From Elusimicrobiota bacterium (GTDB lineage: Bacteria > Elusimicrobiota > Elusimicrobia > O2-12-FULL-59-9): a stretch of DNA of 17,075 nt. Location of the stretch: positions 1 to 17,075 of the forward strand of contig JACQRQ010000269.1 in assembly GCA_016206405.1 (NCBI GenBank). The letters run 5' to 3'. A model generated the notes under the pieces. The model saw nothing but the letters and a program-made list of their open reading frames with translations, made no database searches and was not told the DNA's origin. This document shows positions 669-17,075 of this stretch, one piece after another (position 1 is the stretch's first letter; each line of letters opens with the position of its first letter). The position numbers were made by a program, and so were the translations under genes.

Positions 669-3317
669 TCAACGTCGGAAGAGGCGTTTGAGGGACTTTA
701 ACCAGGGGCGCAGTTGGGAGACGGCCCACACGGCGGCGAGGGCGGCGAGGAGGCCGGGCAGGCCGGAGCGCATCGCGGTGACTTCCAGGAAATTGGAGGC
801 GAAATGCGCGACGGCGGGCAGAAGCATCGCGCTGCCGGCGAAATAATAAAGCCCGGCGAAGAACACACCCATGGCCGTTCTTCCGATCAAGGAGCTCCAA
901 GTGAAGGAATAGCCCTCGAGCACTTTCCCGAAATAGGGCAGGTCGATGTCGAAATTATGCACCACCGCGAAAACCACCGAGGAGAGGACCAGCGCCCAAA
1001 AGAGGGGCCTTTGCCAGAACTTGCCTTTAGGATCGAAGGCGGCGCGCGCCAAAATTTTCTTGAGGATTTGCAGGCCCGCGAAAGCGCCGCCGAACACCGC
1101 CAGCGCGGCCGGGTAACTTGCGGGGTTATTGATGAAGGTCAGGCCGTAAAGCAGCGCCGTCGTGCCGAGGATGGTGGGGATGCCCTTCTTGGGGTTGTCC
1201 AGAATGCTTTTGAAAAAGCCTTTGCGGAAGATGAACTCCTCGAGGGAGGCCGCCAGAAAAAGAACCGGGACCAGAAGGCCGGAGGGGGCCGCCAGCAGCT
1301 TTAAGAGCGATTGGGGCATCGTTTCCGCGCGCCCCTCAAAGAAATTCGGTATTTGGTAGGTGGCGATGCCGGCGAAGAAGGCGACGGCCCCGAAGAAAAG
1401 CCCGGCGGCGAGCAGAGGCAAAAGCCTTTTGGGGGTTTTGGAAGGCTTGTTCCACCACTTTCCCACCGCCTTCAAATGCCGGATCTGCCCTTGGAGCGCT
1501 TTTTTCCCGGCGGCGAAGATTTTCTGAAATATGTTTTGGCGAGGCGCCATCGAGGTTTCCCCGCCGCCGCCGACGAGGCGGCTGATCAGCTTTCCGGCGC
1601 CGTAAAGTCCGGCCCAGGCCGCCAGACCTATCCAGGCGTGGCCGGGGATGAAATCCTTAAGCGGGACCAACATGGAGGGATCGGCGGCATTGAGAACCGC
1701 CAGAAGCCATACCGAATAAAGCTGGTAGATTTGGAAAGCGCCGTCGAGAAGAAGGGGCGCCTGAAGGCTGCGGGTGCGGGCATAAAGGTAGATCAGGACC
1801 GCTTGAGTCGCCAGAAGCGACAGTGTGGCGAAAGGAGAGGCCCCGGGGCTCAGGAGCCAGTAGTTGAAGCCCATGGACGCGACCGCCGCCAGCCACGGCG
1901 CCGCCCGCGAACCGGGTTTTAGACGGTTGACGAGAACCTGCGTTCCCTGGAAGACGACCGCCAGAGACAGGAAATTTTGGACCAGGGACTGGGCGAGGCT
2001 GGGAAAGAAAAAGGTTCGCCAGGGAGAGTTCAGCAGATTGTCGATGACCGGGGAAGCGATGAAATCAGCCGCCGCCGCCGTCGCCGCCGCGGCCGAGGCC
2101 GCCGGGGAGAAGATGTGGGAAAATGAAAAGGACTGGAAAGGCACGGAAAGAAGGCTTCCCGCCAACAGGGAGGCCAGGAGGATGGGGGACCAAACCACGG
2201 CGGTGCGCAGCGCGCTGCGGAGCATGTTTTGAAAAGCGGTCCAATTTCCGTTTCCGGCGCGGGCCTCAAATCCCATGTGCTCTTGGAGCGTCCGCACGGC
2301 ATTTTGTCCGGTTGCGTAAACCAAGGGCGCGAGCTTCTCCACCCATTTCAAAAATCGGCCCGGCGTCTTGTTTGCGGGCGGCGGTTGCGCCAGGTTGCGC
2401 GGGTTTTTTAAGAACTGGTTCGCGGCGAATAAAACGATTCCCGCGATGAGGAGCCCCGGCACCAGGGAGTCCACGGCGGCAGGCAGCGTATGACCGATAG
2501 CCGGCAGCAATTTGGCCGCGGCCGGCAGGCTGGCGATCCCGAAGGCCGCGGTGCCGGCGACGCCGGCCCAAACGGAGATTTTATGGCTCCGGCTGGCGGC
2601 GGCCGGTTGTGAAATTTCAGGGACGCTCGGCTCGGCGCCACCCTGCGCAGAGCTGCGGGTGCCTTGAAGCGCCAGAGGCGCGGCGGAATTCTTCTGGGGA
2701 TGGATTGACGCGGCCGGGACCTGCTTTAATCCGTCGGCCGGACCCGCCGCGACCGCGAAGTCTTCGGCGCCGGCTTTTTGCCGCATTTGGGACAAAAGGG
2801 CTTTGGCGATTTCTTCGGCCAGTTTCGGAGATTTCCCGGAGGTTGGCGAAAAAGAGGGGTCGTGGCGGCGGACGATATCGGCCAGAATCCCGGAGGCGTG
2901 CCGGCGCGTGGCGGCGTTCTTGCTCTTTAACGCCTGAAGAACCGCCTCGATATCCTCCACGGCTCCGCTGCGGCCGAGCACGGTGAGGGCGCCCATTTGC
3001 GCGGCTCGCCACTCGGCCGCGCTCAGGCGCGCGTCCCGGGCGCGCGCGAGGAGAATTTCCCGGGTCCACTCCAGCAACGAGCCGTTTTTGAGGATGCGCG
3101 GTATTTGGATGGAGGCCGGGTCTTGCCGGACGGAGGCCAACTGCCTCAAGAAGGAGCGGCGGACGCGGGCGGAGGCGCGGGAGGGGGAATTGGAGGCGCC
3201 GCGTAAATGGCCTCGAGAACCGAGGGCGCCGGCCCAGGCTTGATAAAAGGCCGGCGCGGGGGCGTTGAGCCACAGGCTCAAAGACAGAACAAGTCCAACG
3301 CCGCGCTTTAGCTGCAT
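669..3317 (-). CDS. Large polytopic membrane protein: signal peptide, HEAT-like repeat exodomain, many TM segments and a C-terminal CPBP (CAAX/Abi-type) intramembrane glutamic protease domain
   Basis: All three CPBP motifs are intact in the last ~190 aa: LEEFIFRKG (EExxxR, about 1231-1252), FAVVHNF (FxxxH) and HFASNF (HxxxN). Start trimmed from 3491 to the ATG at 3315-3317, giving MQLKRGVGLVLSLSLWLNAPAPA, a typical signal peptide. The 58-aa upstream extension runs antisense into dus. HEAT/PBS-like repeat: GALTVLGRSGAVEDIEAVLQALKSKNAATRRHASGILADI. Confidence 0.85.
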   Translation of the reverse strand: MQLKRGVGLVLSLSLWLNAPAPAFYQAWAGALGSRGHLRGASNSPSRASARVRRSFLRQLASVRQDPASIQIPRILKNGSLLEWTREILLARARDARLSAAEWRAAQMGALTVLGRSGAVEDIEAVLQALKSKNAATRRHASGILADIVRRHDPSFSPTSGKSPKLAEEIAKALLSQMRQKAGAEDFAVAAGPADGLKQVPAASIHPQKNSAAPLALQGTRSSAQGGAEPSVPEISQPAAASRSHKISVWAGVAGTAAFGIASLPAAAKLLPAIGHTLPAAVDSLVPGLLIAGIVLFAANQFLKNPRNLAQPPPANKTPGRFLKWVEKLAPLVYATGQNAVRTLQEHMGFEARAGNGNWTAFQNMLRSALRTAVVWSPILLASLLAGSLLSVPFQSFSFSHIFSPAASAAAATAAAADFIASPVIDNLLNSPWRTFFFPSLAQSLVQNFLSLAVVFQGTQVLVNRLKPGSRAAPWLAAVASMGFNYWLLSPGASPFATLSLLATQAVLIYLYARTRSLQAPLLLDGAFQIYQLYSVWLLAVLNAADPSMLVPLKDFIPGHAWIGLAAWAGLYGAGKLISRLVGGGGETSMAPRQNIFQKIFAAGKKALQGQIRHLKAVGKWWNKPSKTPKRLLPLLAAGLFFGAVAFFAGIATYQIPNFFEGRAETMPQSLLKLLAAPSGLLVPVLFLAASLEEFIFRKGFFKSILDNPKKGIPTILGTTALLYGLTFINNPASYPAALAVFGGAFAGLQILKKILARAAFDPKGKFWQRPLFWALVLSSVVFAVVHNFDIDLPYFGKVLEGYSFTWSSLIGRTAMGVFFAGLYYFAGSAMLLPAVAHFASNFLEVTAMRSGLPGLLAALAAVWAVSQLRPWLKSLKRLFRR

Positions 3318-3323
3318 TGACTC

Positions 3324-3352
3324 ATTATAGCTGGAGGTCCTAAGGCTGTCTT
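3324..3352 (-). promoter_or_regulatory. Candidate sigma70-type promoter for the CPBP gene, positioned for a leaderless or near-leaderless transcript
   Basis: Minus-strand reading: AAGACA (3352-3347), 17-nt spacer, TATAAT (3329-3324), GAGTCA, then ATG (3317). No Shine-Dalgarno between the -10 box and the ATG. Confidence 0.35.
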
Positions 3353-3447
3353 GGGCCTTACGGCCTACGGAAGGACGGGTAAAGGACCTATCCGGTATTA
3401 GGCCCGGCGACCTACTTAAAAGCGATATAATGTAAAGGTAAATTAAT

Positions 3448-4422
3448 ATGCCTCTGCGCCTCGGCAATCTGGTCTTAAACGACTTGGTCATTCAATCCCC
3501 TCTGGCGGGTTTCTCGGACCTCGCTTTTCGGCTGATAGGCCGGGAAAAGGGCATGGAGTTCGCCTTTTTGGAGATGGTCTCCGCCAATGCGCTGGTGTTG
3601 AAAAACAAAAGAACGCTGGATTACCTCAAGACGGTCCCGGAGGACCGCCCGCTGGGAGCTCAATTGGTCGGCTGCGAGCCTGAAATCATGGGCGAAGCGG
3701 CGGCCGCCATCGAAGACATGCGCTTTGACTTGCTGGATTTAAATCTGGGCTGCCCCGTGAGAAAAGTGACGGCTCTGGGGGCCGGCGCCGCTTTGCTGAC
3801 CGAGCCCGCGAAGGCCGAGGCCGTTTTTAAAAGCGTGATGAAATCCGTCAAAAATATTCCGGTCACCGTCAAAATGCGCAAGGGCTATGCCGACGAGTCG
3901 GGCGACGAGGCGGTCGAGATGGCCAAGATCGCCGAAGCTTGCGGCATATCGGCCGTGGCCATTCACGGCCGCACGCGCGCCGCCGGCTACGGCTCAAGGT
4001 CGGACCCCGGAGTCATCGCCCGGGCCAAAGCGGCGGTCAAAATCCCGGTCATCGGAAACGGCGACGTGATGTCGGGGCAGGACGCTGTGCGTTTGCGGGA
4101 GCAGACCGGCTGCGACGCGGTGATGCTGGGCCGCGCGGGCATGGGAAATCCGTGGATATACGAAGAAGTGGCCCGAGCGTTGAGGGGAGAAAACGGCCGG
4201 AGCGCCCCCCCCGGCGCGGACGAAATCCGCGAAACCCTATTGAGGCATTTCGATCTCAAGCTCCGGCATCAGGCGGAACGCGTCGCCGTGCTGGAGATGC
4301 GCCAAATCGCGGGCCAGTACTCGAAAGGGCTTCCCGACGCGGCCGGTTTCCGCAGCCGGATGCACGGCGTCAACGGCGTCGCGGAAGCGCGCCGGGTCAT
4401 CCAAGAGTTTTTCCGGAGCTGA
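3448..4422 (+). CDS. dusB: tRNA-dihydrouridine synthase (Dus family, DusB/NifR3-like)
   Basis: 324 aa. N-terminus LVIQSPLAGFSDLAFRLI, catalytic-Cys loop DLNLGCPVRKV and HGRTRAAGY are the classic TIM-barrel Dus signatures. ATG at 3448 is preceded by AAAGG at 3434-3438. Confidence 0.9.
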   Translation: MPLRLGNLVLNDLVIQSPLAGFSDLAFRLIGREKGMEFAFLEMVSANALVLKNKRTLDYLKTVPEDRPLGAQLVGCEPEIMGEAAAAIEDMRFDLLDLNLGCPVRKVTALGAGAALLTEPAKAEAVFKSVMKSVKNIPVTVKMRKGYADESGDEAVEMAKIAEACGISAVAIHGRTRAAGYGSRSDPGVIARAKAAVKIPVIGNGDVMSGQDAVRLREQTGCDAVMLGRAGMGNPWIYEEVARALRGENGRSAPPGADEIRETLLRHFDLKLRHQAERVAVLEMRQIAGQYSKGLPDAAGFRSRMHGVNGVAEARRVIQEFFRS

Positions 4423-4469: not shown

Positions 4470-6608
4470 ATGAAGCTTGCCCACCGTTTCTTCCTCATTA
4501 TCGTCGCCGCTTCGCTGCTTCCCTTGGGCCTGACCAGCCTATGGCTGTTTCAGTTCCAAAAAATGGCTCAGCGCAATTCGCTCGAGCTTCACCTCGGGGT
4601 GGCCCAGTTCAGCTCGGAGGCGATCACCAAGTACATCCAGGGACTCAACCGGCGCGTCGGCTTCATGCTGGACCTCGAGCGGGCTCGGGCCATCGGCCGC
4701 AACCAGCAGATGCTGGTTATTCAGCAGGCCATGGCCACCAACGCCGATTTCGCTTTTCTCTCCGTTGTTGATTCCCAGGGTCGGGAGATCGTCAAGGAGT
4801 ACAACGCCGACATCTACAAACAGGCGCAGGACTATCAGGCCCGGTCCGGGGAGGAGGTTTTCAAGAAAGCCCAAAAGGACCGGCGCGTTTCTTTGGGAGA
4901 GATCGTCATGCTCGAGGGCCGGCCGATGATGCCGCTGGTTTATCCGTTCCACTACGGCGGCTACGGTTATTTGATGGTGGACCTCCATTCCGTATTCCAA
5001 AACTTGACCGGCAGAACCCTGGGCACGACCGGGCACGTCATCGTCATCAACAAGTCGGGCCGCCCCTTGGCGCCTTTCGCCGACACGGTGAGCCGCTTGC
5101 CGGTGGACTCTCTCAAGGAGCTCATCGCGCAGGACGATGTGGGCATCTCGGACTATATCCCTTCCGAGGAGGGGGTTATGGTGGGCGCTTTCCAGCGCGT
5201 GACGGACATGCCCTGGGCGGTGTTGACCCTGCAATCGCGGGAAGACGCCTTTCTGGCCGCCGAGCAATTGACGTGGACCATCATCGGCTGGATAGGCCTG
5301 GTCGCTTTGGTGGCTTTTGGGGTCGCTTACGTGACGGCGCTGCGCGTGGCCGGACCCATCGAGCGCTTGAACGCCGGCGCCCTGCGCGTCGCCCAAAAGG
5401 ACCTCAGTAAGCCGGTTCCGGAAGTTGGCTGGGGGGAGCTCAAAGCTCTGGCGCGAAGCTTCAATCAAATGATGCAGGAGCTGCAGGCTTTCCACGACCT
5501 TCAAGTCGGGAAGATCGTGGAGGAAAAGACGCGGGTGGAGACTTTGGTCTACAGCATCCCCGATGGGATCGTCATGGCCGATTTTTCGGGACAGGTGCTC
5601 TACGTCAATAAGCCCGCGCTCAGCATGCTGGGCTACCAGGCTCCGGCGGCCGAGCCCGGATCGCTGGATATCTACAATGTCGTTCAGGAGGCCCGCATCC
5701 GCCCCATGCTGCAAAGGGTCATGCGGCGCGCGGCCCGCAAGGATCAGATGGAGATATCCATCAACGACAAGGCTTCCGGCCGGACCCGCCATTTCGCCGC
5801 CGCGGTGTCCACCGTCGCCGCCGCCGGCAAGGCCGATTTGGGCATTTTGCTGCTGATGCGCGACGTGAGCGTCGAGCGCGAGTTGGAGGAGATGAAGGAG
5901 CAGTTCTTCCATTCCTTGGCGCACGATCTGCGCGCGCCCATCACGGCCGTGCAAGGCTACGTGCGTCTGCTGGAAAAAAGCCTTCCGGCCGGGGAGAGGG
6001 AAAAGCGCTACTTTAGGTCCGTCTACGCGGGCACGCGCCAAGTTCTTGCTTTGGTCAGCGACATCCTGGATTCGGCCAAGATGAAGGAGGGCAAGCTGCC
6101 TTTGGAATTGAGCCGCATCGAGGTTGTGCCCATGCTGCGCAAAATCCAGGAGCTTTTCACGCCCGTCGCCTCCCAGAAAGGGATCCGCCTGGCGCTGGAA
6201 GGCGTCGAGAAAATTCCGGGCGTTTTGGAGGGCGACGCGCGCCTTATCGAAAGGGTGGTCACCAACCTGGTCAGCAACGCCCTAAAATTCTGCGGCTCCG
6301 GAGCGCGCGTCGCCTTGGAGTTCGAATCCATCCACCCTCAGCGCGTAGAATTGGCGGTGGCCGACACCGGCCCGGGAATTCCCCCGGACAAGCTCCAGGC
6401 CGTTTTTGAGCGATTCAAGCAGTTGGAATCCGGAGAGAAGCGCTCCGGCTTCGGCCTGGGGCTTTCCATCTGCAAGATGGTGGTTGAAATGCACGGGGGG
6501 AAGATATGGGTCGAATCGGTCCTGGGAAAGGGCAGCCGGTTCCGCATCCTTTTACCCCGAAAAGTGCCGGCCAAAACCGGCGAAACCGCTATTCCCCCTG
6601 CCGGATGA
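4470..6608 (+). CDS. Sensor histidine kinase (TM, ~240-aa extracytoplasmic sensor, TM, HAMP, PAS, HisKA, HATPase_c); no cognate response regulator in the window
   Basis: Start trimmed from 3939 to the ATG at 4470 (MKLAHRFFLIIVAASLLPLGL, TM1). The upstream 177 codons overlap dus out of frame and are Arg/Pro-rich. HAMP: PIERLNAGALRVAQKDLS...ELKALARSFNQMMQEL. PAS: VYSIPDGIVMADFSGQVLYVNKPALSMLGY. H-box: FFHSLAHDLRAPIT. N-box: VVTNLVSNALKF. G-boxes: DTGPGIP and GFGLGLSI. No obvious SD before 4470. Confidence 0.88.
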   Translation: MKLAHRFFLIIVAASLLPLGLTSLWLFQFQKMAQRNSLELHLGVAQFSSEAITKYIQGLNRRVGFMLDLERARAIGRNQQMLVIQQAMATNADFAFLSVVDSQGREIVKEYNADIYKQAQDYQARSGEEVFKKAQKDRRVSLGEIVMLEGRPMMPLVYPFHYGGYGYLMVDLHSVFQNLTGRTLGTTGHVIVINKSGRPLAPFADTVSRLPVDSLKELIAQDDVGISDYIPSEEGVMVGAFQRVTDMPWAVLTLQSREDAFLAAEQLTWTIIGWIGLVALVAFGVAYVTALRVAGPIERLNAGALRVAQKDLSKPVPEVGWGELKALARSFNQMMQELQAFHDLQVGKIVEEKTRVETLVYSIPDGIVMADFSGQVLYVNKPALSMLGYQAPAAEPGSLDIYNVVQEARIRPMLQRVMRRAARKDQMEISINDKASGRTRHFAAAVSTVAAAGKADLGILLLMRDVSVERELEEMKEQFFHSLAHDLRAPITAVQGYVRLLEKSLPAGEREKRYFRSVYAGTRQVLALVSDILDSAKMKEGKLPLELSRIEVVPMLRKIQELFTPVASQKGIRLALEGVEKIPGVLEGDARLIERVVTNLVSNALKFCGSGARVALEFESIHPQRVELAVADTGPGIPPDKLQAVFERFKQLESGEKRSGFGLGLSICKMVVEMHGGKIWVESVLGKGSRFRILLPRKVPAKTGETAIPPAG

Positions 6609-7221
6609 TGTTGACTTCGATCCGCCGGTTGGCGGCTCGATTCTCCTCGGTGTCGTTGGGCGCGCGCGGCTGATATTCCCCGTAGCCGATGGCGGCCAAG
6701 CGCTGGGGCGGCACTCCTTCCTGGATCAAGAGCTTTGTGACGCTGAAAGCGCGCGCGGCGGAGAGTTCCCAATTTGTCTTGTAAGGCGAGTTCGGCCCCA
6801 TCGGCTGGGCGTCGGTGTGGCCCTCCACCTGGATTTGATTGGGCAGCTCCTTGAGGGAGGCGGCCAGAGCCTGCAAGTGGGGCAGGGAGGCGGTCTTGAG
6901 ATCCGCGCTTCCGGAGTTGAACAGAACGGGCGCTGAAAAGGTGATGCGAAGACGGTTTCGATTGATATCCACCCGGGCGATCTGCTGAATTCCGTATTTG
7001 GAAAAAATCTCCTTCATCTTGTCGGATTTGCTTCCGAAGGCTTCCTCGAGAGCTTGGGCGCTCAGTTGATGCGTCATGTCCTTGTTGGTGGAGTTGAACA
7101 CGAACATGATGAGAAAGAAGATCATCAGGTAGCTCATCATGTCGCCGTAGGTGATGGCCCACAGGGCTCCGCGGTTGAGCTGATTTTCCAACTCGTCTTC
7201 CCGTTCCTGAAATATCGCCAT
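6589..7221 (-). CDS. motB: MotB-type stator subunit (single TM with conserved Asp plus OmpA-like peptidoglycan-binding domain)
   Basis: 210 aa. LWAITYGDMMSYLMIFFLIMFVF carries the channel Asp (D27, codon 7141-7143). OmpA-like C-terminus: GHTDAQP...NWELSAARA...NRRIEV. ATG at 7221 lies 8 nt after the motA stop, with AAGGA overlapping that stop. Confidence 0.88.
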   Translation of the reverse strand: MAIFQEREDELENQLNRGALWAITYGDMMSYLMIFFLIMFVFNSTNKDMTHQLSAQALEEAFGSKSDKMKEIFSKYGIQQIARVDINRNRLRITFSAPVLFNSGSADLKTASLPHLQALAASLKELPNQIQVEGHTDAQPMGPNSPYKTNWELSAARAFSVTKLLIQEGVPPQRLAAIGYGEYQPRAPNDTEENRAANRRIEVNIIRQGE

Positions 7222-7229
7222 AATCGTCC

Positions 7230-8030
7230 TTAAGTCTGCTCCATCGCCGGGACTTCCATCGTCGGGCGAGCTTCCGGCAGGGTCTTTTTCTCCGCGTAGG
7301 CCAGAAGGTGCATTTCAATGAGATAGGGGGGCTTGGATTCCATGATGTCGAGCACCCCCTCCACCAGGATTTCCAGCACCAAAGTTTCCTGAATCGCCCG
7401 GGTCCGGATTTTTCCGGCCACGGGGACGAACAGCAGATTGGCGAGAGAGATGCCGTAGAAAGCCGTGCTGATGGCCAAGGCCATGGCCGCGCCCACCTTG
7501 CTGGGGTCGGAAATCGTCCGCAGAACTTGGATGATTCCGAGCAAAGTCCCCAGCAGCCCGAACATCGGCGCCAAAATACCCATCGTCCTGAAAAGGTTGG
7601 CGTCCTCCATCTGGTTGAAGCGCTTCTGGCGGATGTCCTCGCCCAGGATGCGCTTGGCCTCCTTGACCTCCCCCGAGGTGATGGCGATGGTGATGGCGCG
7701 GTTGAGTTGGCCTTCGGCGAATTCGCGCCCCTCATCCTGGAGCTCGATGAGCCCGCCCCCCGAGCGCGCCTTGGTCGCCAGCCGCACCACCTCCGCGATG
7801 GTCTCCGGGACGGAGGGAAAGCGCGTCGCCACGAACAAGGACATGAGGTTCTTGAAGGCTTTGACCAAATCGTGAACGGAGCTGTTGATGAAAGTCGCGG
7901 CCAGAGTGCCGCCGAAAACGATGATGATGCCGTGGGTGTTTAAAAACGTGGTTCCGGCGCCGGCTTGGATGACGCCCCAAACAAGGACGCCGATGCCTCC
8001 GGCAAAACCGATAAGCGTCGCGAAGTCCAT
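7230..8030 (-). CDS. motA: MotA/PomA-type stator proton-channel subunit (4 TM)
   Basis: The track start at 8036 is TTG; the ATG at 8028-8030 (MDFATLIGFAGG) lies 2 nt after the upstream TGA (8033-8035). Two N-terminal TMs, a cytoplasmic loop (LATKARSGGGLIELQDEGREF), then TM3 with GILAPMFGLLGT and TM4 with LANLLFVPVAGK, both prolines in the expected places. Confidence 0.88.
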   Translation of the reverse strand: MDFATLIGFAGGIGVLVWGVIQAGAGTTFLNTHGIIIVFGGTLAATFINSSVHDLVKAFKNLMSLFVATRFPSVPETIAEVVRLATKARSGGGLIELQDEGREFAEGQLNRAITIAITSGEVKEAKRILGEDIRQKRFNQMEDANLFRTMGILAPMFGLLGTLLGIIQVLRTISDPSKVGAAMALAISTAFYGISLANLLFVPVAGKIRTRAIQETLVLEILVEGVLDIMESKPPYLIEMHLLAYAEKKTLPEARPTMEVPAMEQT

Positions 8031-8032
8031 GC

Positions 8033-9538
8033 TCAAGCTCCCAAGGTGATTCTGCCGGACTGCTCCATGCCGCGCACGACCTGCATGAAGCGCTTGCGCT
8101 CCGCTTCCTGCTGCGCGGCCGAGCTCTGCCGGTTGAGCTCATCGGCCAACACGCGGTGCAAGGCTTCCGGCAAGGCCGCCATGGCCGTCGTCTGAAGGTC
8201 CTTGGTCAGCCCCTTGAAAACGGTTCCGAGAGCCACGCGCTGGCGATAGGCTTCCCATAAAACGCTCTGCAGGGTGTTCTTGTCGAGGCCGATAATTTTT
8301 TCCACCGTCAGCATCCGGCGCTGAATGTCTTCGACCAGCTCGGGGTGCTCGATGCGCATTTCTTCCATCATGGCCCCTTGTTTTTCGGCCGCCTGGGTGT
8401 CCATGATCAACAGGATCTGGTCCACGCCGCCGACGATGGATTTCACCTGGTTTTCCAGCTGCCGGCTCAGGTCCACGACGGCCTCCGGCGAGATGGTCCT
8501 GGGGGAGGAGAGCAAAATGAAGACCTCCCGCTGCATTTCCGGGCTCAGGGAATCGAGAAGCTTGGAGGAGATATTGGCCGGCAGATAGGCGGCGACCGTG
8601 GCCAGGATTTGGGCGTCCGCTTCCGCCAGCACCAAGGACAGCTTGGAAATATTGTCGGCGTTGACGAAGGCGAAGGGCGAGGCGGCGCCGTCTTTTTGCT
8701 CCAAGAGCCCCGCCGCGCCGCCGCCCAGCGTCGGGCCGCCGCCGGCGCCCGCTTGCGGAAGCTGGCGCATCTCGTTGAAGCCCTGCTGAATTTGAAGAGG
8801 GGGGAGATTTCCGCCGATGCGGCCTTCCACGCTGAAGTTTTCCGCCGATTGAGCGAAGCGGTTGAGAAAGGTCCTGACCGGGCCGAACAAAAAGGCGGTC
8901 AGCATCAAAAGGCCGAAGACCCAGAACACGAACGGATTTAAATTATTCTTCCAGTACAAGAATTGCTCCCAGGAATCCCGGCGGAAAGCGATTCTTTCGA
9001 TGGCCAGCCCATCGCCCCGGGCGGCCTCCAGGCCGATCAACATCGGCAGGACTTTTTTCAAGTCCTCGATTTTCTCATCGGTGACGGCTTTGGGGACGAT
9101 GATGCGCACGCTCATGCTTTTGACGTAGTCGGAGGGGATCTTGACGGTCTGGGCGATCTGCTGCGTGAGCGGTTGAACGCCGGCCTTGACCCCGCCGGCT
9201 TCTTGGCGGAACTCCTGGGGCAGGAAGGTTTGGGTGATTCCCGGCATGGCTTGATCGGCGCCCGGGTTCTTCTCGTCCGTTTTTCCGGTTTTGCCCTCGA
9301 GCGGCTCCACGACGCTCCTGGTCTCCTGGGTCATGTTGAAATCCACGGTGATCTTCACCCAAATCAGAAAATCCTCGTTGCCCAAAAGCTTCTGCGTCAC
9401 CCCGCGAACTTTCTCCGTCAAGGCGTTTTCCAAAAGAATGCGCTCCTCGACGCCCAGCGTGGCCCCCAGCTCCCGGCACAGCGCCGGAAGAAGCGACAGC
9501 CCGGCCAGAAAAAGCATCCGCCTCGTTTTTGCTTTCAT
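8033..9538 (-). CDS. Chimeric FliF-like / FliG-like membrane protein: N-terminal signal/anchor, reduced FliF-type periplasmic region, one TM, Gly/Gln-rich linker, then FliG middle and C-terminal domains
   Basis: FliG_C-like: ELVEDIQRRMLTVEKIIGLDKNTLQSVLWEAYRQRVALGTVFKGLTKDLQ...LPEALHRVLADELNRQ...AERKRFMQVVRGMEQSGRITL, which matches the remembered FliG pattern (MFxFEDL..LDDRxIQxxLRE..LAxALKG..EL....A..xLxEDL....ee.Q..Il......L...GeI). FliG_M-like: YLPANISSKLLDSLSPEMQREVFILLSSPRTISPEAVVDL. FliF C-terminal-like: MSVRIIVPK...IEDLKKVLPMLIGLEAARGDGLAIERIAF (RGD codons 9011-9019), followed by a TM (PFVFWVFGLLMLTAFLFGPV, about 8876-8938). The track start at 9556 is TTG; the ATG at 9538 (MKAKTRRMLFLAGL) is preceded by GGGAG. 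Confidence 0.75.
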   Translation of the reverse strand: MKAKTRRMLFLAGLSLLPALCRELGATLGVEERILLENALTEKVRGVTQKLLGNEDFLIWVKITVDFNMTQETRSVVEPLEGKTGKTDEKNPGADQAMPGITQTFLPQEFRQEAGGVKAGVQPLTQQIAQTVKIPSDYVKSMSVRIIVPKAVTDEKIEDLKKVLPMLIGLEAARGDGLAIERIAFRRDSWEQFLYWKNNLNPFVFWVFGLLMLTAFLFGPVRTFLNRFAQSAENFSVEGRIGGNLPPLQIQQGFNEMRQLPQAGAGGGPTLGGGAAGLLEQKDGAASPFAFVNADNISKLSLVLAEADAQILATVAAYLPANISSKLLDSLSPEMQREVFILLSSPRTISPEAVVDLSRQLENQVKSIVGGVDQILLIMDTQAAEKQGAMMEEMRIEHPELVEDIQRRMLTVEKIIGLDKNTLQSVLWEAYRQRVALGTVFKGLTKDLQTTAMAALPEALHRVLADELNRQSSAAQQEAERKRFMQVVRGMEQSGRITLGA

Positions 9539-9609
9539 GGGATTATGCGCTCCCAACGGAATTCTTCAACGGCTTTGAGGGCCGTCGCAGGAGCTCGGCG
9601 CACACTATA

Positions 9610-9638
9610 AGGTTAAGCGGATTGTGCGAAATTGTCAA
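9610..9638 (-). promoter_or_regulatory. Candidate sigma70 promoter for the fliF/G-like, motA, motB operon
   Basis: Minus-strand reading: TTGACA (9638-9633), 17-nt spacer, TAACCT (9615-9610), with TATAGT immediately downstream. About 70 nt upstream of the ATG at 9538. Confidence 0.35.
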
Positions 9639-9720
9639 TACCAAGGGGAAAAGTGGAGTCCGCAAGCGTTTTTTGGGTAGAATGTGGGCGGCTTTGAAAG
9701 CCCCCGGCAGGAGACACCCG

Positions 9721-11085
9721 ATGAGCGGAAAAATTTCTCTAAAAGAGCTTGCGGCGCAAATCCGCAAAGACGAAATCGACACCGTGCTGGCCGTTTTCCC
9801 GGACATGCAGGGGCGCTGGATGGGCAAGCGGGTCACGGGGAGATATTTTTTGGACAACGTCATGGAGAGCGGGCTGCATGCCTGCGCCTATCTCTTGGCG
9901 ACCGACGTGGACATGGAGCCCCTTCCGGGCTTTGAGTTCGCGAGCTGGCAGACGGGCTACCAGGATTTCCACATGCTCCCGGATTGGGGAACCTTGAGGA
10001 TGATTCCATGGCTGGAAAAGACGGCGCTGGTGGTCTGCGACGCGGCCGCGGAAAACGGCGCGCCCGTTTCCATAGCGCCGCGCAGCATCTTAAAGCGGCA
10101 AATCGAGCGCGCGGCGCAAAAGGGGCTGCGGCTTAAAGTGGCCTCCGAGCTTGAATTTTTCTTGTTTAAAGAGACGTATGAAACCGCCCAACAGAAAAAT
10201 TACCACGGCTTGGAGCCCTTCGGCCATTACATCGAGGACTATCACGTCCTGCAGGGCAGCAAAGAGGAATTCCTGATGCGGGCCATCCGCACGCAGATGG
10301 AGGCGGCCGGGGTTCCGGTGGAGTTTTCCAAGGGCGAATGGGGAAAGGGCCAGCATGAGATCAACCTCCGCTGCGCCGATCCCCTGGAGATGGCCGACCG
10401 TCATTCGATCTACAAGACGGGCGTCAAAGAAATCGCGATGTCCAAAGGGCTCGCCGTGACCTTCATGGCCAAATACGACGGCCGGCAAGCCGGCTCCAGT
10501 TTTCATCTGCACGCGAGCCTGTGGGACGCTTCCGGGAAAAAGGCCCTTTTCTGGAATGCGGCCAAAAAATCCCCTTCGCCCTTGTTTTCGCATTTTCTGG
10601 CCGGGCAGATGGCTTTGGCGAGGGAGTTTTCCTATTTCTTCGCGCCCCACGTCAACTCCTACAAACGCTACCAAAGCGGCTCCTTTGCGCCCACGCGCAT
10701 CGCCTGGGGGCGGGACAACCGCACTTGCGGCTTTCGCATCGTCGGGGAGGAAGAAAACTATCGGATTGAAAACAGGATTCCGGGGGCGGACGCCAATCCG
10801 TATTTAGCCTTCGCCGCCGCCATCGCGGCGGGCCTCTACGGCCTGGAACGTAAGCTGCCCTTGGCAGGGGAAACGCGCGGCAACGCCTACCTGGCCGAAG
10901 GGGTTGCCGACGTGCCGAAATCGCTGGCGGAGGCGGTGGAGCTGCTGCGCCAAAGCTCGCGGGCGCGCGAGGCCTTCGGCCCGGAGGTCGTCGAGCATTA
11001 CCTGCGCTCCGCCGGCTTGGAGCAGGCCTCTTTCGACGCCGCCGTCACCTGCTGGGAGCGGGAGAAGTTCTTTGAAAGGATATAG
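9721..11085 (+). CDS. Glutamine synthetase family ligase, GlnA-like / gamma-glutamyl-amine synthetase type (PuuA/GlnA3-like)
   Basis: Start trimmed from 9529 to the ATG at 9721, with GGAGA 6 nt upstream. GS catalytic-domain signatures: KGEWGKGQHEINLRCADPLEMAD, GSSFHLHASLW, NSYKRY...FAP..IAWGRDNRTCGFRI and ENRIPGADANPYLAFAAAIAAGLYG. Confidence 0.85.
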   Translation: MSGKISLKELAAQIRKDEIDTVLAVFPDMQGRWMGKRVTGRYFLDNVMESGLHACAYLLATDVDMEPLPGFEFASWQTGYQDFHMLPDWGTLRMIPWLEKTALVVCDAAAENGAPVSIAPRSILKRQIERAAQKGLRLKVASELEFFLFKETYETAQQKNYHGLEPFGHYIEDYHVLQGSKEEFLMRAIRTQMEAAGVPVEFSKGEWGKGQHEINLRCADPLEMADRHSIYKTGVKEIAMSKGLAVTFMAKYDGRQAGSSFHLHASLWDASGKKALFWNAAKKSPSPLFSHFLAGQMALAREFSYFFAPHVNSYKRYQSGSFAPTRIAWGRDNRTCGFRIVGEEENYRIENRIPGADANPYLAFAAAIAAGLYGLERKLPLAGETRGNAYLAEGVADVPKSLAEAVELLRQSSRAREAFGPEVVEHYLRSAGLEQASFDAAVTCWEREKFFERI

Positions 11086-11088
11086 ACT

Positions 11089-11856
11089 ATGCGCTTAAAA
11101 AACAAGGTTTGCCTGATCACGGGGGTCGCCAGCGGCATGGGGCGCGCGGCGGCCCGAAGGTTCGCCCAAGAGGGGGCCAAGGTCGTTGGAACGGACGTCC
11201 AGGCGCCGGCGGGCGAGGCGGCGATGCAAGAAGTGAAAGCGCAGGGCGGCGACGGCATTTTTATCGCGGGAGACATCTCCCGGCCCGAAGACGCCCGGGA
11301 GATGGTCCGGCGCGGCGTCGAGCGCTACGGGCGATTGGACGTCCTCTACAATAACGCCGGCATTTTTCCGTCCGACGACTGCTCGGTGATTAACACGGAA
11401 CCGGAAGTCTGGGACCTCGTCTACCGCGTGAACTTGAAGGGGATGTACCTGATGTGCCGCTACGGCATACCCGAAATCATTCGCGGCGGCGGAGGCTCGG
11501 TCATCAACATCGCCTCTTTCGTGGCGTTGGTGGGCTGCTCGGTGCCGCAGGACGCCTACACGTCGTCTAAAGGCGCGGTCATCGCGCTGAGCAAATCCCT
11601 GGCGGTCCAGTTCGGCCCCAAGGGCGTGCGCTGCAACGCCGTCTGCCCCGGGCCGGTGGAAACGCCGCTTCTGATGCAGTGGCTTTTGAGCAACCCCGCC
11701 GAGAAGGCCAAGCGCATCAACCGCATCCCGATGGGGCGCTTGGGCAAGCCCGAGGAGATCGTCGCCTTGGCCGTTTATCTGGCCTCGGATGAATCCGCCT
11801 GGACCAACGGCGCGGCCATCGTGGTTGACGGCGGCATCACCGCCAATTATTTTTAA
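11089..11856 (+). CDS. Short-chain dehydrogenase/reductase (classical SDR)
   Basis: Contains TGVASGMGRA (TGxxxGxG), NNAG, YTSSKGAV (YxxxK) and PGPVETP. The ATG lies 3 nt after the upstream TAG, with AAAGGA at 11075-11080. Confidence 0.9.
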   Translation: MRLKNKVCLITGVASGMGRAAARRFAQEGAKVVGTDVQAPAGEAAMQEVKAQGGDGIFIAGDISRPEDAREMVRRGVERYGRLDVLYNNAGIFPSDDCSVINTEPEVWDLVYRVNLKGMYLMCRYGIPEIIRGGGGSVINIASFVALVGCSVPQDAYTSSKGAVIALSKSLAVQFGPKGVRCNAVCPGPVETPLLMQWLLSNPAEKAKRINRIPMGRLGKPEEIVALAVYLASDESAWTNGAAIVVDGGITANYF

Positions 11857-11924
11857 GCGGCGGCCTGGCGCCGTTTTGCATAGGGTCCGCCAGTTATTGT
11901 TTGCCAGGCCCTTATTGTGATAGC

Positions 11925-13433
11925 ATGAAACGCGTCATGTCCCCCCAAGCTTCGAAAAAAATCAAGCGCGCCCCCGCCTCAGCTCCGGTCAAATCCCTTT
12001 GGCATTTATGGATCGGGGGAAAGGCCGTCTCGAGCCTGGCGGGCAAGCGCTTCGTCGTGCATAATCCGGCCAACGGGCAAAAGTTGACCGAGGTCGCGCA
12101 GGGCGACGCGGCGGACGTCGACGCGGCCGTGTCGGCCGCCCGCCGAGCTTTCGACGGCCCTTGGGCCAAGTTTGGTCCCAGAGACAGGGCGCGGGCGTTG
12201 TTTAAATTCGCGCAGGCCGTGCGGGATCACCGCGAAGAGCTGGCGCTGCTTGAAACCTACAACACCGGCAAGCCCATCGGCGATTCGCGGGGCGAGGTCG
12301 CCGTCGCGGCCGACTGCTTTGAATATTACGCCGGGGCCGTGACCAAATATTTCGGCAGCACCATACCCGTTTCGGCCACCGGCCTGGATTTTACTCTGCG
12401 CCAGCCCATGGGGGTTTGCGGACTGGTCGTGCCTTGGAATTTTCCCATCATGATCACGGCCTGGAAACTGGCCCCGGCCCTGGCCTGCGGCAACACGGCC
12501 GTGATAAAGCCGGCCAGCTATACCCCGCTGACGGCGCTCCGGCTCGCGCAGCTCTGCGAGGAGGCCGGAATCCCGGAAGGGGTCGTCAACGTCGTGCCGG
12601 GTCCGGGCGACGTGGCCGGGCAGGCTCTCGCCGCGCATCCCGGGGTCGCCAAGATTTCTTTTACCGGGGAGACCGCCACCGGGGAGCGCGTCCTGCGCGC
12701 CGCGGCCGCGACGATTAAGCGGGTTTCCCTGGAGCTGGGCGGGAAATCCCCCAACATCGTCTTCGCCGACTGCGATTTGGAGCGCTGCGTCGAGAAATCC
12801 GTTTTTTCGGTGTTCGGCAACGCGGGGCAGGACTGCTGCGCGCGCAGCCGCGCCCTGGTTGAAAAAAGCGCGGTGGAGGAGTTTGTCGGCCGTTTCGCGG
12901 AGCGCACCCGTAAAATCGTGGTGGGCGATCCGTTGGACGAGGCCACGCAAGTGGGCCCCATGATTTCGCGCCAGCAGCGCGAGCGCGTGCAGGGATACGT
13001 CGCGTTGGGGCAGAAGGAGGGCGCCCGGCTGGTGTGCGGAGGCGGCCTGCCTGAAGACGTCCGGTGGAAGGCGGGACACTTTCTGATGCCCGCCGTTTTG
13101 AGCGAAGCCCGGCCCGGGATGCGCGTGGCGCAAGAGGAGATTTTCGGCCCGGTGCTCTGCGTCCTGGCTTTTGACGGCGAAGAGGAGGCCGTCCGCCTGG
13201 CCAACGACACGCCCTACGGACTTTCCGGCTCCATCTGGACCCGCGACTTATCCAAGGCTCTGCGCGTCGCGCGCCGGGTTGAAAGCGGAAACTTAAGCGT
13301 CAACTCGGCCACCAGCGTTTATTTGGAAGCGCCTTTCGGGGGATTTAAGCGCAGCGGCGTGGGCCGCGAGCTCGGCATGGGAGCCATGGACCTCTACAGC
13401 GAAGTGAAGAACGTTTTCGTGGAGCACGGTTGA
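11925..13433 (+). CDS. NAD(P)-dependent aldehyde dehydrogenase
   Basis: Contains VVPWNFP, FTGETATGE, the catalytic Glu in LELGGKSP, the catalytic Cys in GQDCCARSR, EEIFGPV, and PFGGFKRSGVGRE at the C-terminus. The track start at 11901 is TTG. In-frame ATGs are at 11925 and 11937, neither with a clear SD, so the start is uncertain by about 12 codons. Confidence 0.88.
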   Translation: MKRVMSPQASKKIKRAPASAPVKSLWHLWIGGKAVSSLAGKRFVVHNPANGQKLTEVAQGDAADVDAAVSAARRAFDGPWAKFGPRDRARALFKFAQAVRDHREELALLETYNTGKPIGDSRGEVAVAADCFEYYAGAVTKYFGSTIPVSATGLDFTLRQPMGVCGLVVPWNFPIMITAWKLAPALACGNTAVIKPASYTPLTALRLAQLCEEAGIPEGVVNVVPGPGDVAGQALAAHPGVAKISFTGETATGERVLRAAAATIKRVSLELGGKSPNIVFADCDLERCVEKSVFSVFGNAGQDCCARSRALVEKSAVEEFVGRFAERTRKIVVGDPLDEATQVGPMISRQQRERVQGYVALGQKEGARLVCGGGLPEDVRWKAGHFLMPAVLSEARPGMRVAQEEIFGPVLCVLAFDGEEEAVRLANDTPYGLSGSIWTRDLSKALRVARRVESGNLSVNSATSVYLEAPFGGFKRSGVGRELGMGAMDLYSEVKNVFVEHG

Positions 13434-13447
13434 GGCGAGGAGCCTAA

Positions 13448-14728
13448 ATGACCATACATGAACTGATCAGCTTGGCCGGGACCTTCATCCTGATCGGCAT
13501 CGGCTACGCGCTCTGCGCAAACAAGGCCCGCATTCGTTGGAAGACCATAGCGTGGGGCTGCGCGCTGCAGTTTATCTTCGCCGTTCTGGTGCTCAAAACC
13601 CCGCCGGGCCAATGGTTTTTTTCGCTCATGAACGACGTCATCACCCGGCTGCTGTCGTTCCAGGAAGAGGGCGGCAAGTTCGTGTTCAACGCTTTGGCCA
13701 TACCGCCCGGCGCGGAAGGCTCCATGGGTTTTTTCTTCGCCTTCCAGGTTCTGACCACCATCATCTTTTTCTCCTCCCTGATGTCGGTGCTTTACTACCT
13801 GGGCGTCATGCAGTGGATCGTGCTGTTTTTCGCCAAAATCATGCGCCGGTTTATGGGGACTTCCGGCGCGGAAACCTTATCCGCCTCGGCCAATATTTTC
13901 GTCGGGCAGACCGAGGCGCCTCTGCTCATCAAGCCCTACGTGGCCGAGATGACCGAATCGGAGCTGATGTGCGTCATGGTGGGGGGCATGGCGACCGTGG
14001 CCGGCGGAGTGATGGCGGCCTACGTCGGCATGCTCAAGACTTACTTTCCGGACATTGCCGGGCATTTATTGGCGGCCAGCGTCATGAGCGCGCCCGCGGC
14101 CTTGGTGATGGCCAAAATCATTATCCCGGAAACCGGCCATCCCAAAACCATGGGGACGGTCAAGCTTGAATATAAAGACCCATCCATCAACGTCATCGAG
14201 GCCGCGGCCAACGGCGCCGCCACCGGCCTTCAACTGGCTTTAAACGTCGGCACGATGCTCATCGCCTTCATGTCGCTTCTGGCCCTGGCGAATTTCATGA
14301 TCAGCTCGGCTCTGGGACATTTGGGATTTGCGGGCATGACTCTGGAAAAGCTTTTGGGCTACGCCTTCATGCCCCTGGCGTGGATCATGGGCACTCCCTG
14401 GAAGGACTGCATGATCGTGGGTCAATTCATGGGCGAAAAAACCGTCTTAAACGAATTCGTGGCCTACCTCCACATGGCTCAATACGCGGCCGCCCATCCG
14501 GGGGAACTATCTCACCGGGCTTTCGTCATTTCCACCTACGCGCTTTGCGGATTTTCCAACTTCCTTTCCATCGGCATCCAGATCGGCGGCATCGGGGCAT
14601 TAGGACGGGACGACGAAGAGCGGCAGAGACTGCGGCAAAGCCTGGCCCGTCTAGGAATTAAAGCCCTCATCGGCGGCAGCCTGGCCTCCTTCATGACTGC
14701 CACCATCGCCGGCATTCTCGTGCCGTAG
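13448..14728 (+). CDS. nupC: NupC-family concentrative nucleoside (CNT) transporter
   Basis: 426-aa polytopic protein. N-terminus IRWKTIAWGCALQFIFAVLVLKT, central NIFVGQTEAPLLIKPY, and C-terminus YALCGFSNFLSIGIQIGGIGAL are characteristic CNT/NupC blocks. The ATG lies 14 nt after the ALDH stop, with GAGGAG upstream. Confidence 0.85.
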   Translation: MTIHELISLAGTFILIGIGYALCANKARIRWKTIAWGCALQFIFAVLVLKTPPGQWFFSLMNDVITRLLSFQEEGGKFVFNALAIPPGAEGSMGFFFAFQVLTTIIFFSSLMSVLYYLGVMQWIVLFFAKIMRRFMGTSGAETLSASANIFVGQTEAPLLIKPYVAEMTESELMCVMVGGMATVAGGVMAAYVGMLKTYFPDIAGHLLAASVMSAPAALVMAKIIIPETGHPKTMGTVKLEYKDPSINVIEAAANGAATGLQLALNVGTMLIAFMSLLALANFMISSALGHLGFAGMTLEKLLGYAFMPLAWIMGTPWKDCMIVGQFMGEKTVLNEFVAYLHMAQYAAAHPGELSHRAFVISTYALCGFSNFLSIGIQIGGIGALGRDDEERQRLRQSLARLGIKALIGGSLASFMTATIAGILVP

Positions 14729-15339: not shown

Positions 15340-15554
15340 TAGTATGGTGATGATTTATGCGGATAAAGCGTTGAAAACGTGCCGTCCAAATCAAGAATGC
15401 CAAAATCTCGATTGTGCAAGACCCCAGCCGCGTTTCCCATGACCCCGCCGATCCCAAGATCCAAAAATGGTTCGCCAGCCAAACGAAGTAACCCCCGCCC
15501 ACCCGCGACTTCATCATTGAAAGTGCGTGTCGGCCGTGAAAAAGGCATGATCAT
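15336..15554 (-). CDS. Doubtful 72-aa ORF translationally coupled to the nucleotidyltransferase gene; may be a gene remnant
   Basis: Its ATG (15554-15552) overlaps the upstream TGA (15553-15551) as ATGA. I recognise no family. G+C falls sharply through its 3' half, and it ends inside the cupin promoter candidate. Confidence 0.2.
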   Translation of the reverse strand: MIMPFSRPTRTFNDEVAGGRGLLRLAGEPFLDLGIGGVMGNAAGVLHNRDFGILDLDGTFSTLYPHKSSPYY

Positions 15555-16396: not shown

Positions 16397-17075
16397 GTTT
16401 CCACCTCGGCATGATGACCTGGGATAGGATATGCTCCGCCTGCTCGCGGCCGCGCACAGGGTAACGATAGCAATCCAGGTAAAGCTGCACGTCAGACACT
16501 ACGGGGAGCTTGCGCACCTCCCTGACTCCGAAGGAGCCAGAGTCCGCGTAGTAGGGTTGAACCAAATGAATGGGCCCGACCTCATTGGGGACTAGGCGCA
16601 GGACATTCTGCCACGATCGCCTGAGTTCATCCGCGTTCGGCAGATGGACATGGACCTCATTGAAGACGGCAAATGGAGCGACAAGGGAGGCGCCGGCCAT
16701 GGAGGTCAATGCCCATCGTCCTGGAAGCTCGGCGCGCGCATTGGAGAGCAGCTTGAGGATTTTTTCCGCGTCGGTCTTTTTGGCCGGTGAGTAGCGATAG
16801 TCCTTAAGCGCTTTGATGGCATACCAAGCCGCCCAGTCTCGCAGGAGTTGAGCCGGTTCAAGAATCCGGGCCTCCGCCGTGCTCTCCCGCGAGGCATAGC
16901 CAATGCGTTCAAGCCTTCGCAAGGCCAAGATCGCGAGCGCTGGGCTCGCTCCCGCCATCCTCGCCAGCTCTCGAATCCCCCAGGGCTTCGTCGGATTGGA
17001 TAGGGCGACGCGCAGCAGCATTGAAGCGCTGTCGGCGAACGGGTTGCGTTCTTGGAGGAGCTGCTGTTTAGGCAT
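16389..17075 (-). CDS. Winged-HTH protein, AbiEi-like antitoxin/transcriptional regulator; start at or beyond the window edge
   Basis: N-terminal wHTH: PWGIRELARMAGASPALAILALRRLERIGYASRE. The C-terminal domain ends DVQLYLDCYRYPVRGREQAEHIL, as in AbiEi-type partners. An ATG occupies the last three window bases (17073-17075), so the true start cannot be confirmed. Confidence 0.55.
   Translation of the reverse strand: MPKQQLLQERNPFADSASMLLRVALSNPTKPWGIRELARMAGASPALAILALRRLERIGYASRESTAEARILEPAQLLRDWAAWYAIKALKDYRYSPAKKTDAEKILKLLSNARAELPGRWALTSMAGASLVAPFAVFNEVHVHLPNADELRRSWQNVLRLVPNEVGPIHLVQPYYADSGSFGVREVRKLPVVSDVQLYLDCYRYPVRGREQAEHILSQVIMPRWKRA

Follow-up and report, generated by a model that had tools for sequence, protein, structure and literature searches.

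A natural FliF–FliG fusion at the head of a motA–motB operon in Elusimicrobia: a candidate flagellum-independent rotor–stator module

Does a protein that joins part of FliF to part of FliG, and whose gene directly precedes motA and motB, belong to a flagellum, or is it the rotor of a different machine? This question is raised by a 17,075-nucleotide stretch of contig JACQRQ010000269.1 (assembly GCA_016206405.1), hereafter the window, a high-GC contig from an Elusimicrobia metagenome-assembled genome (MAG). The open reading frame (ORF) of interest runs on the minus strand from an ATG at 9538 to a TGA at 8033-8035, with an alternative TTG at 9556, and encodes 501 residues that are identical to the NCBI entry “hypothetical protein HY611_09860 [Elusimicrobia bacterium]”. 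An earlier note, made from the sequence alone, described it as a natural FliF–FliG fusion that lacks FliG_N and most of the FliF periplasmic ring. This architecture is borne out by Pfam, profile searches, AlphaFold2, and Foldseek; the operon context, the large family, and the lack of flagellar neighbors, which that note left unused, are the additional evidence considered here. Taken together, the three genes that extend from 9538 to 6589 on the minus strand are probably a flagellum-independent rotor–stator module, a reading that we hold with moderate confidence.

Domain models place the two halves of the protein (8033-9538). Pfam recognizes YscJ_FliF_C (PF08345, 25.8 bits against a cutoff of 23.8), FliG_M (PF14841, E 7.6e-10, 39.3 bits against a cutoff of 25), and FliG_C (PF01706, E 3e-12, 47.2 bits against a cutoff of 23.3), the last across profile positions 2-108 of 108. 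When a three-sequence profile was compared with solved structures, FliG_MC of T. maritima (1lkv) was matched at E 2.5e-24. A profile of the N-terminal domain from 22 sequences found Vibrio FliF at E 1e-13, its best PDB match being the chain of a Vibrio FliF–FliG fusion, Salmonella FliF at E 3e-12 over FliF residues 242-461, and SpoIIIAG at E 5e-4. The RGD of the fusion protein aligns with the KRGDTL/GRGDLL motif of FliF, and the alignment extends into the second transmembrane segment (TM2) of FliF. PF08345 was also recognized in 19 of the 22 family N-domains.

The predicted structure agrees with this assignment. Given 145 family sequences, AlphaFold2 produced a model with a mean predicted local distance difference test score (pLDDT) of 82.4, which supersedes a model from only three close sequences (pLDDT 45.6). 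In a Foldseek search of the PDB, FliG_MC structures were matched at E 7e-9 and below with a probability of 1.0. Structures of the S-ring and of the third ring-building motif (RBM3) with its collar (8z4g, 8z5v, 7cg7, 6scn, and 6sd1) were matched with target-normalized TM-scores of 0.55-0.59, also at a probability of 1.0. A ring-building fold and a FliG fold, on both of which the earlier proposal depended, are thus predicted.

The model begins with a basic stretch and a short hydrophobic helix (residues 1-26, 9461-9538; helix 3-26, seen as helices 3-15 and 17-26). The first half of RBM3 follows at residues 30-65 (9344-9451) as helix 30-52 and strand 58-65, supported by Foldseek and by a profile that aligns to Salmonella FliF from residue 242. 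Residues 66-138 (9125-9343) form a short β-hairpin (71-75 and 128-132) at what the profile alignment to FliF gives as the collar position, around a disordered loop of about 50 residues (pLDDT below 50 at 84-121). The second half of RBM3, residues 139-183 (8990-9124), consists of strand 139-149, helix 154-168, and strand 177-183, contains the RGD, and is covered by the profile alignments to FliF. An amphipathic helix then leads to the TM helix (202-234 in the model), which hydropathy, AlphaFold2, and the FliF alignment identify as the equivalent of FliF TM2 and which is followed by an FLFGP motif (feature residues 201-234, 8837-8938). On the cytoplasmic side, a disordered linker rich in Gly, Gln, and Pro (residues 236-290, 8669-8833, pLDDT below 50) precedes the helical FliG_M and FliG_C domains at 297-493. 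The Pfam stretch of the middle domain covers residues 301-369 (8432-8638) and is supported by the alignment to 1lkv. The Gly-Gly linker G370-G371 (8426-8431) lies directly after it, and the C-terminal torque domain occupies residues 393-499 (8042-8362) according to Pfam, the 1lkv alignment, Foldseek, and column counts.

Codon arithmetic on the translation showed that the landmarks given in the earlier note were exact to the base: the RGD is at residues 174-176 (9011-9019), the TM segment at residues of about 201-221 (8876-8938; 203-221 by hydropathy), and MLTVEK at residues 409-414 (8297-8314). One part of that description had to be abandoned. The periplasmic region had been read as two RBM-like stretches split by a low-complexity insert, but the order of secondary-structure elements in the model rules out two separate RBMs and gives a single RBM3, interrupted where FliF bears its β-collar and with the collar shortened.

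Several parts of the parent proteins are missing. Pfam finds no FliG_N (PF14842) in the fusion protein, where 55 disordered residues separate the TM helix from FliG_M; for some relatives there are weak FliG_N matches, but these coincide with FliG_M. The YscJ_FliF model for RBM1/RBM2, which is the SctJ-homology region (PF01514), gives no Pfam match either, and the periplasmic part of about 175 residues corresponds to a single RBM. The C-terminal tail through which FliF binds FliG_N is absent, as the linker of the AlphaFold2 model leads straight into FliG_M. Neither NCBIfam equivalog is reached: TIGR00207 (fliG) scores 75.2 bits against a cutoff of 226.7, and TIGR00206 (fliF) scores 15.8 bits against 129.75. 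As modeled, the periplasmic part is one split RBM3, with RBM1, RBM2, the FliF C-tail, and FliG_N all missing. The protein fails several defining tests of FliF and of FliG as such and is best filed with rotor–stator components of the flagellar kind.

The N-terminal segment is either a Sec-type signal peptide or an equivalent of FliF TM1. Hydropathy and inspection by eye indicate hydrophobic N-terminal segments with AxA-like ends in many homologs; because these resemble Sec signal peptides, the mature fusion protein may be a single-pass membrane protein.

A metagenome-assembled contig and a low-complexity linker could also give rise to an apparent fusion by assembly chimera or frameshift join, or the gene could be a pseudogene decaying after the loss of a flagellum. 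The size and conservation of the family bear directly on this alternative. HMMER, run exhaustively over 1.84 billion representatives, returned 524 matches at E <= 1e-10, and the family distribution is based on this full scan; a scan of GTDB species-representative genomes used a 7-sequence alignment and is confined to family members of the “WEAYR / FLFGPxR” kind. Architecture was counted in the best 150 of the 50%-identity cluster representatives, and alignment columns in 145 sequences. A TM segment lies within 160 residues upstream of FliG_MC in 146 of the 150, with a median gap of 65 residues between TM and FliG, and at least 120 residues precede the TM segment in 138 of those 146. A hidden Markov model (HMM) of the N-domain made from three sequences only recognizes 117 of the best 150.

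Homologs with the same domain order, which the earlier note had proposed to look for, are present at 98%, 51%, 50%, and 42-43% identity. The 98%-identical copy comes from an independent MAG (RIFCSPLOWO2_12_FULL_59_9, contig MGUX01000091), and 26 synonymous and 9 non-synonymous changes separate the two genes, with no substitution within FliG_MC; the ratio of non-synonymous to synonymous changes, normalized by sites (pN/pS), is 0.11. Three motifs are nearly invariant at about 20% identity: P99-G100, part of a family motif LPGxP in the collar-position loop (P99 in 141/145 and G100 in 137/145), R174-G175-D176 (R174 in 120/145 and D176 in 134/145), and the Gly-Gly linker G370-G371 (138-139/145). 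The FLFGP after the TM helix is a majority motif (87-107/145). With the join recurring in many independent assemblies, purifying selection acting on the gene, and an intact reading frame that is coupled to motA, an artefact or decaying relic is exceedingly improbable and has effectively been refuted already.

The family appears to be a property of one phylum. All nine loci from GTDB species representatives belong to Elusimicrobia/Elusimicrobiota MAGs. Members with an informative organism name are all from Elusimicrobiota as well, apart from one 4.9-kb contig in an archaeal bin, where it was probably placed in error. Database labels read “flagellar motor switch protein FliG”, “FliG C-terminal domain-containing protein”, or hypothetical. 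Some longer forms of 600-750 residues (P0023, P0028, P0062, P0083, P0086, P0125, and P0154) carry a cytoplasmic C-terminal extension of tetratricopeptide repeats (TPR) after FliG_C, and neighboring conserved proteins of 426-830 residues are without a Pfam match.

The genes that follow the fusion supply the other half of the proposed module. A motA/pomA-like A subunit of 266 residues, identified by Pfam, NCBIfam, and a PDB profile, is encoded at 7230-8030 from an ATG at 8030, and a motB-like B subunit of 210 residues, identified by the Pfam models MotB_plug and OmpA, at 6589-7221 from an ATG at 7221, both on the minus strand. Only 2 nt separate the fusion stop codon from the motA start, which has a GGGAG in front of it, and 8 nt separate the motA stop from the motB ATG, in front of which stands an AAGGA. 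On the strength of these short gaps and of the Shine–Dalgarno sequences at both downstream genes, the sequence identifies the fusion gene as the head of a tight fusion–motA–motB operon (9538 to 6589, minus strand). The divergent intergenic region at 9539-9720, beyond which a glutamine-synthetase-like gene begins at about 9721 on the plus strand, presumably holds the operon promoter; a search upstream of the fusion gene gave one weak sigma-70-like match at 9569-9542 that was no better than those in shuffled sequences.

The A subunit matches MotA_ExbB in Pfam (E 1.5e-19) and, in searches against the PDB, MotA at E 3e-35 and PomA at E 2.5e-32, with an end-to-end alignment of residues 3-249; the match to TolQ is far weaker (E 3.6e-4). 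NCBIfam PomA/MotA models give 120-155 bits, all under their equivalog cutoffs (the best is 154.5 against 341). The B subunit matches MotB_plug (E 1.4e-11) and OmpA (E 8.4e-21) and consists of a plug helix, a TM segment with Asp27, and a peptidoglycan-binding domain. The pair therefore has what defines a stator: a MotA_ExbB channel domain with a large cytoplasmic torque-generating loop in one subunit, and a plug, a channel Asp, and an OmpA domain in the other. Judged by these domains and alignments, the stator is of the flagellar type and not of the TolQ/ExbB type. The Zorya defense system was considered as another home for such proteins and rejected, as PADLOC gave no match for MotA or the fusion protein and only generic MotB/ZorB similarity for the B subunit. 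As a separate observation, the Thr residues in “LLGTLLG” and “ISTAFYG” of MotA align with the PomA Thr residues of TM3 and TM4, which we take to be those implicated in Na+ coupling; this alignment hints at the use of sodium rather than protons.

If the fusion protein is a rotor, its torque domain should be able to meet the stator. The torque helix of E. coli FliG bears the charged residues K264, R281, D288, D289, and R297. These were mapped onto the window protein through an alignment via T. maritima FliG (1lkv), together with the 145-sequence column counts, and the torque-helix region lies at about 8129-8173. The E. coli residue numbering is also found in PMC12505986. K264 corresponds to K442 of the window protein (K or R in 102/145 family members), D288 to D466 (E, Q, or D in the family), and D289 to E467 (E in 103/145). 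R281 corresponds to A459, a position that is Gly in 100/145, and R297 approximately to Q476, which is not conserved in the window protein or the family. The check proposed in the earlier note, whether the charged residues of the torque helix are conserved, thus has a mixed outcome: K264, D288, and D289 have counterparts, and R281 and R297 do not.

In the classical interface, R90 of MotA pairs with D288/D289 of FliG (PMC12505986). At the MotA position of PomA R88 or E. coli R90, R or K is present in 13/13 aligned operons, and this pair is retained in the window, since the MotA Arg and D466/E467 are both kept. The other charge pair has lost both partners in the clade of the window protein, and this double loss is suggestive of co-variation, not proof of it. 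Also gone from the same clade is the EHPQ motif that binds FliM, where the window protein reads ADAQ, whereas the wider family keeps the E in 105/145 and the P in 90/145. Loss of this motif and of the MFxF hinge would fit a motor without a FliM/FliN switch.

The mechanism that we propose from these features is as follows. The RBM3 domains would assemble into a membrane ring, like the FliF S-ring and SpoIIIAG. The covalent link would set one FliG_MC under each ring subunit in place of the joint between the FliF tail and FliG_N, and, being covalent, it would fix a 1:1 FliF:FliG stoichiometry. A peptidoglycan-anchored MotA5B2, driven by ion flow, would push the torque helix of FliG_C, with the MotA Arg (PomA R88 or E. 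coli R90) facing D466-E467, the acidic pair that is kept. This push would turn the ring or place it under load, and there would be no FliM/FliN switch, in keeping with the lost EHPQ in the window clade.

Such a trio might still be the FliF, FliG, and stator of a genuine, streamlined flagellum with its other genes elsewhere in the genome. All three proteins are closest to flagellar components, and one related locus (L003) has the order flbD–motA–motB, an arrangement typical of spirochete and Firmicute flagellar operons. The gene neighborhoods of 17 distinct related loci were compared. In 12 of them, motA is the next gene after the fusion, and in 3 others (L003, L018, and L020, the last convergent) it is no more than three genes away; it is absent from the available flank in L004, L006/7, and L008. 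No gene for FliE/H/I/J/M/N, FlhA/B, FliPQR, the rod, the hook, or the filament (flagellin) was found in about 170 kb of Pfam-annotated flanks of relatives, whereas fliF and fliG normally lie within fliE–fliJ clusters, and the window contains no flagellar structural or export genes. The only other flagellum-associated family in the flanks is FlbD, in L003 alone, directly before motA. The protein itself also departs from flagellar FliF and FliG. RBM1 and RBM2, which surround the export gate in FliF, are absent, the FliM-binding EHPQ is lost, and the NCBIfam scores given above are far below the equivalog cutoffs.

Reports on the phylum bear on both sides of this alternative. A preprint on magnetotactic Elusimicrobiota (10.1101/2022.07.08.499144) states in its section 13 that a full flagellar gene set occurs in only a few Elusimicrobiota genomes. 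According to the same section, most free-living Elusimicrobiota have no structural flagellar proteins, yet they have numerous motAB, flbD, and fliG homologs of unclear role; the authors call the role of motAB and fliG enigmatic and propose gliding or twitching. These orphan genes come from the same phylum and are very probably the same genes as the fusion family. They are treated there as KEGG “fliG”, and section 13 of the preprint makes no mention of the FliF-RBM3 fusion, membrane anchoring, the operon, or the accessory genes. Our literature search found no paper that describes a FliF-RBM3 fusion or a fusion–motA–motB operon, and nothing specific on a non-flagellar FliG-like protein with MotA. 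On this evidence, a streamlined flagellum is very unlikely.

A further alternative is suggested by histidine kinases. A 712-residue dCache-HAMP-PAS-HisKA-HATPase kinase (4470-6608, plus strand, by Pfam) is convergent with motB, with a 3′ overlap of 20 bp, and is a possible regulator or partner of the module, although its membership is uncertain. The same convergent kinase follows motB in L005, the locus at 42-43% identity, and a HAMP kinase lies directly after motB2 in L019. In L018 and in four representatives (P0104, P0119, P0135, and P0147), HisKA and HATPase_c are fused to the N terminus of the fusion protein. OmpR-type response regulators occur upstream in L005 and L008, a CHASE2-cyclase is encoded near the module in L018, and a response regulator–GGDEF protein in L005. 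The recurrent kinases suggest that the module is regulated by signaling or that signaling is its output. In the second case, the system would be a signaling or regulatory device: a membrane-anchored FliG_MC array would dock and unplug MotAB, and stator engagement, ion flow, or load would be reported to two-component systems, as in the sensing of surfaces, load, or ion-motive force. The conserved ring-building domain, Gly-Gly linker, and acidic torque-helix pair are hard to explain in a passive dock. Moreover, kinases neighbor many operons, and the one that converges on motB here is encoded on the other strand. Both ideas could hold together, as a kinase could simply regulate a motor. We regard a dedicated signaling device as rather unlikely.

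If the three genes do form a flagellum-independent rotor–stator module, the neighbors of its relatives may indicate what it acts on. In deeper clades, the gene immediately upstream of the fusion (L013-L017, L003, L004, L008, and L020) encodes a protein of about 510-540 residues whose N-terminal half resembles FadL/PorV/UPF0164 outer-membrane barrels and whose C-terminal half consists of TPR; this barrel–TPR protein has no counterpart in the window and may be a partner of the fusion protein in the periplasm or outer membrane. A second MotB paralog with plug and OmpA domains follows the first in L013, L014, L017, L019, and L020, whereas the window clade has one. Several deeper-clade loci also encode giant surface proteins of 2,300 to 11,800 residues. 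Large surface-type proteins sit upstream of the barrel–TPR and fusion genes in L003 (1-7753; 11,782 residues, with no Pfam match on record), L018 (1-7672; more than 2,885 residues), L020 (1341-8330; 2,329 residues), and L004 (1-2432; 809 residues), and those of L018, L020, and L004 carry domains of the FlgD_ig, BNR, or Por_Secre_tail type. Genes for Por_Secre_tail, FlgD_ig, or PorV are present in several related loci. The arrangement of the large proteins recalls the cargo of the type IX secretion system (T9SS) or gliding adhesins.

Because FadL/PorV–TPR barrels, giant surface proteins, and kinases recur in related loci, the gene content suggests that the output in the wider family would be a mechanical or signaling task that spans the envelope, such as adhesin movement or secretion, and not swimming. 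A more ambitious version of this idea is possible but tentative. The module might be a self-sufficient, export-free rotary motor for a non-flagellar envelope machine, its ring coupling in the fuller loci to the PorV/FadL-like barrel–TPR protein and to giant T9SS-type surface proteins; it would then serve as a gliding, adhesin-transport, or secretion motor with a flagellar rotor in the place of the Bacteroidota GldLM. On this reading, the trio could also represent, or mimic, the rotor–stator core as it once was without the type III export apparatus.

Several points weigh against a flagellum-independent motor. The equivalents of R281 and R297 are absent from the torque helix, and the MotA position of PomA E96 or E. 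coli E98 is Gln in the window clade, though Glu in a deeper clade. The window clade lacks both EHPQ and the MFxF hinge, for which it has MLTV, whereas most family members retain E-x-P and F-x-F-E-D. The absence of flagellar genes covers the window and the flanks of relatives, not the whole source MAG, and complete flagellar sets exist in a few Elusimicrobiota, as the section of the preprint cited above reports. The operon in the window comes without a candidate output component. The recurrent association and fusion with kinases fit signaling as well as they fit a motor. Finally, oligomerization, rotation, and the contact between MotA and FliG are inferences, and the predicted structure is that of a monomer.

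Comparison with known systems helps to place the module. It shares with the canonical flagellar core the RBM3/S-ring fold with its RGD, a collar-position loop, and a TM2 equivalent, as well as FliG_M, FliG_C, the Gly-Gly linker, and the acidic torque-helix pair; the A subunit is of the PomA/MotA type, and the B subunit has the plug, the Asp, and the OmpA domain. It differs in having one polypeptide for two, without RBM1, RBM2, the FliF C-tail, or FliG_N, in lacking R281/R297 equivalents and, in the window clade, EHPQ and MFxF, and in the absence of FliM/N, export, rod, hook, and filament genes nearby. Every equivalog cutoff is missed.

The nearest precedent is the Chlamydiaceae FliF–FliG protein (Bergeron 2016, PMC4768692), a natural fusion with a shortened FliF in a bacterium not thought to be flagellated. 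In its about 330 residues, an SctJ-like RBM2 and one more stretch resembling an RBM are combined with a short part in the cytoplasm that is similar to FliG_M only; it is proposed to work with the injectisome, and the paper mentions no torque domain (PMC4768692). For Chlamydia, only three flagellar genes are listed there (FliF, FliL, and FlhA), none of them a stator gene (PMC4768692). By that description, the window protein is set apart in having RBM3 only, full FliG_M and FliG_C domains, and a dedicated MotAB. Engineered deletion-fusions in Salmonella and the Vibrio FliF–FliG fusion (PDB 8z4d/8z4g; PMC10941966) show that a covalent link is compatible with ring formation. Unlike the window protein, these have full-length FliF, FliG_N, and three RBMs, and they are laboratory constructs in a background where the rest of the flagellar system is complete.

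SpoIIIAG of the sporulation channel and SctJ/PrgK of the injectisome share the αββαβ ring-building fold, and SpoIIIAG bears an insertion at the same RBM position. Their similarity to the window protein is much weaker than that of FliF RBM3 (a needle-complex model containing PrgK was a weak Foldseek match), and they have no cytoplasmic FliG domain or stator partner. With GldLM/PorLM of T9SS and gliding, AglRQS, ExbBD, TolQR, and ZorAB, the module shares the concept of a MotAB-type ion motor that energizes a non-flagellar envelope process. The likeness to T9SS and gliding motors extends to the PorV/FadL-like barrels, Por_Secre_tail proteins, and giant surface proteins of related loci. The stator of the window differs from these motors in being of the flagellar type, and no ZorA model matches it. 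To our knowledge, none of these systems uses a rotor of the FliG/FliF type.

The window contains further genes. The block at 9721-14728 on the plus strand, divergent from the operon, encodes the glutamine-synthetase-like enzyme, a short-chain dehydrogenase, an aldehyde dehydrogenase, and a NupC-type nucleoside transporter, and may be a catabolic cluster of the γ-glutamylation type. An AbiE-type toxin–antitoxin pair on the minus strand consists of an AbiEii-like nucleotidyltransferase (15551-16396) and an AbiEi-like antitoxin (16389-17075) that runs off the window end; an AbiEii/AbiEi pair is also found near the module in L005. A 940-residue ORF (669-3491, minus strand) contains an Rce1-like CAAX protease at residues of about 825-902, the rest having no family match. 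Two further minus-strand ORFs, at 6338-7735 (465 residues) and 4539-6041 (500 residues), were rejected as genes, since they have no family matches and, in other frames, overlap motA/motB and the kinase; gene callers could be misled by such artefacts of high GC content.

If the proposed reading is correct, the torque core of the flagellum (S-ring domain, FliG_MC, and MotAB) can persist under selection as a three-gene unit without the export gate, rod, hook, filament, or FliM/FliN switch. How the flagellar motor arose from modules and was put to new uses would become open to test: does an RBM3–FliG_MC ring assemble by itself, does it turn, and what does it turn? For structural work and synthetic biology, one polypeptide with a fixed 1:1 stoichiometry would offer a much simpler rotor. 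For a poorly known and mostly uncultured phylum, the family would give a molecular identity to its unexplained fliG and motAB genes, and it points to an undescribed ion-driven envelope machine that would be linked to outer-membrane barrels, giant surface proteins, and histidine kinases.

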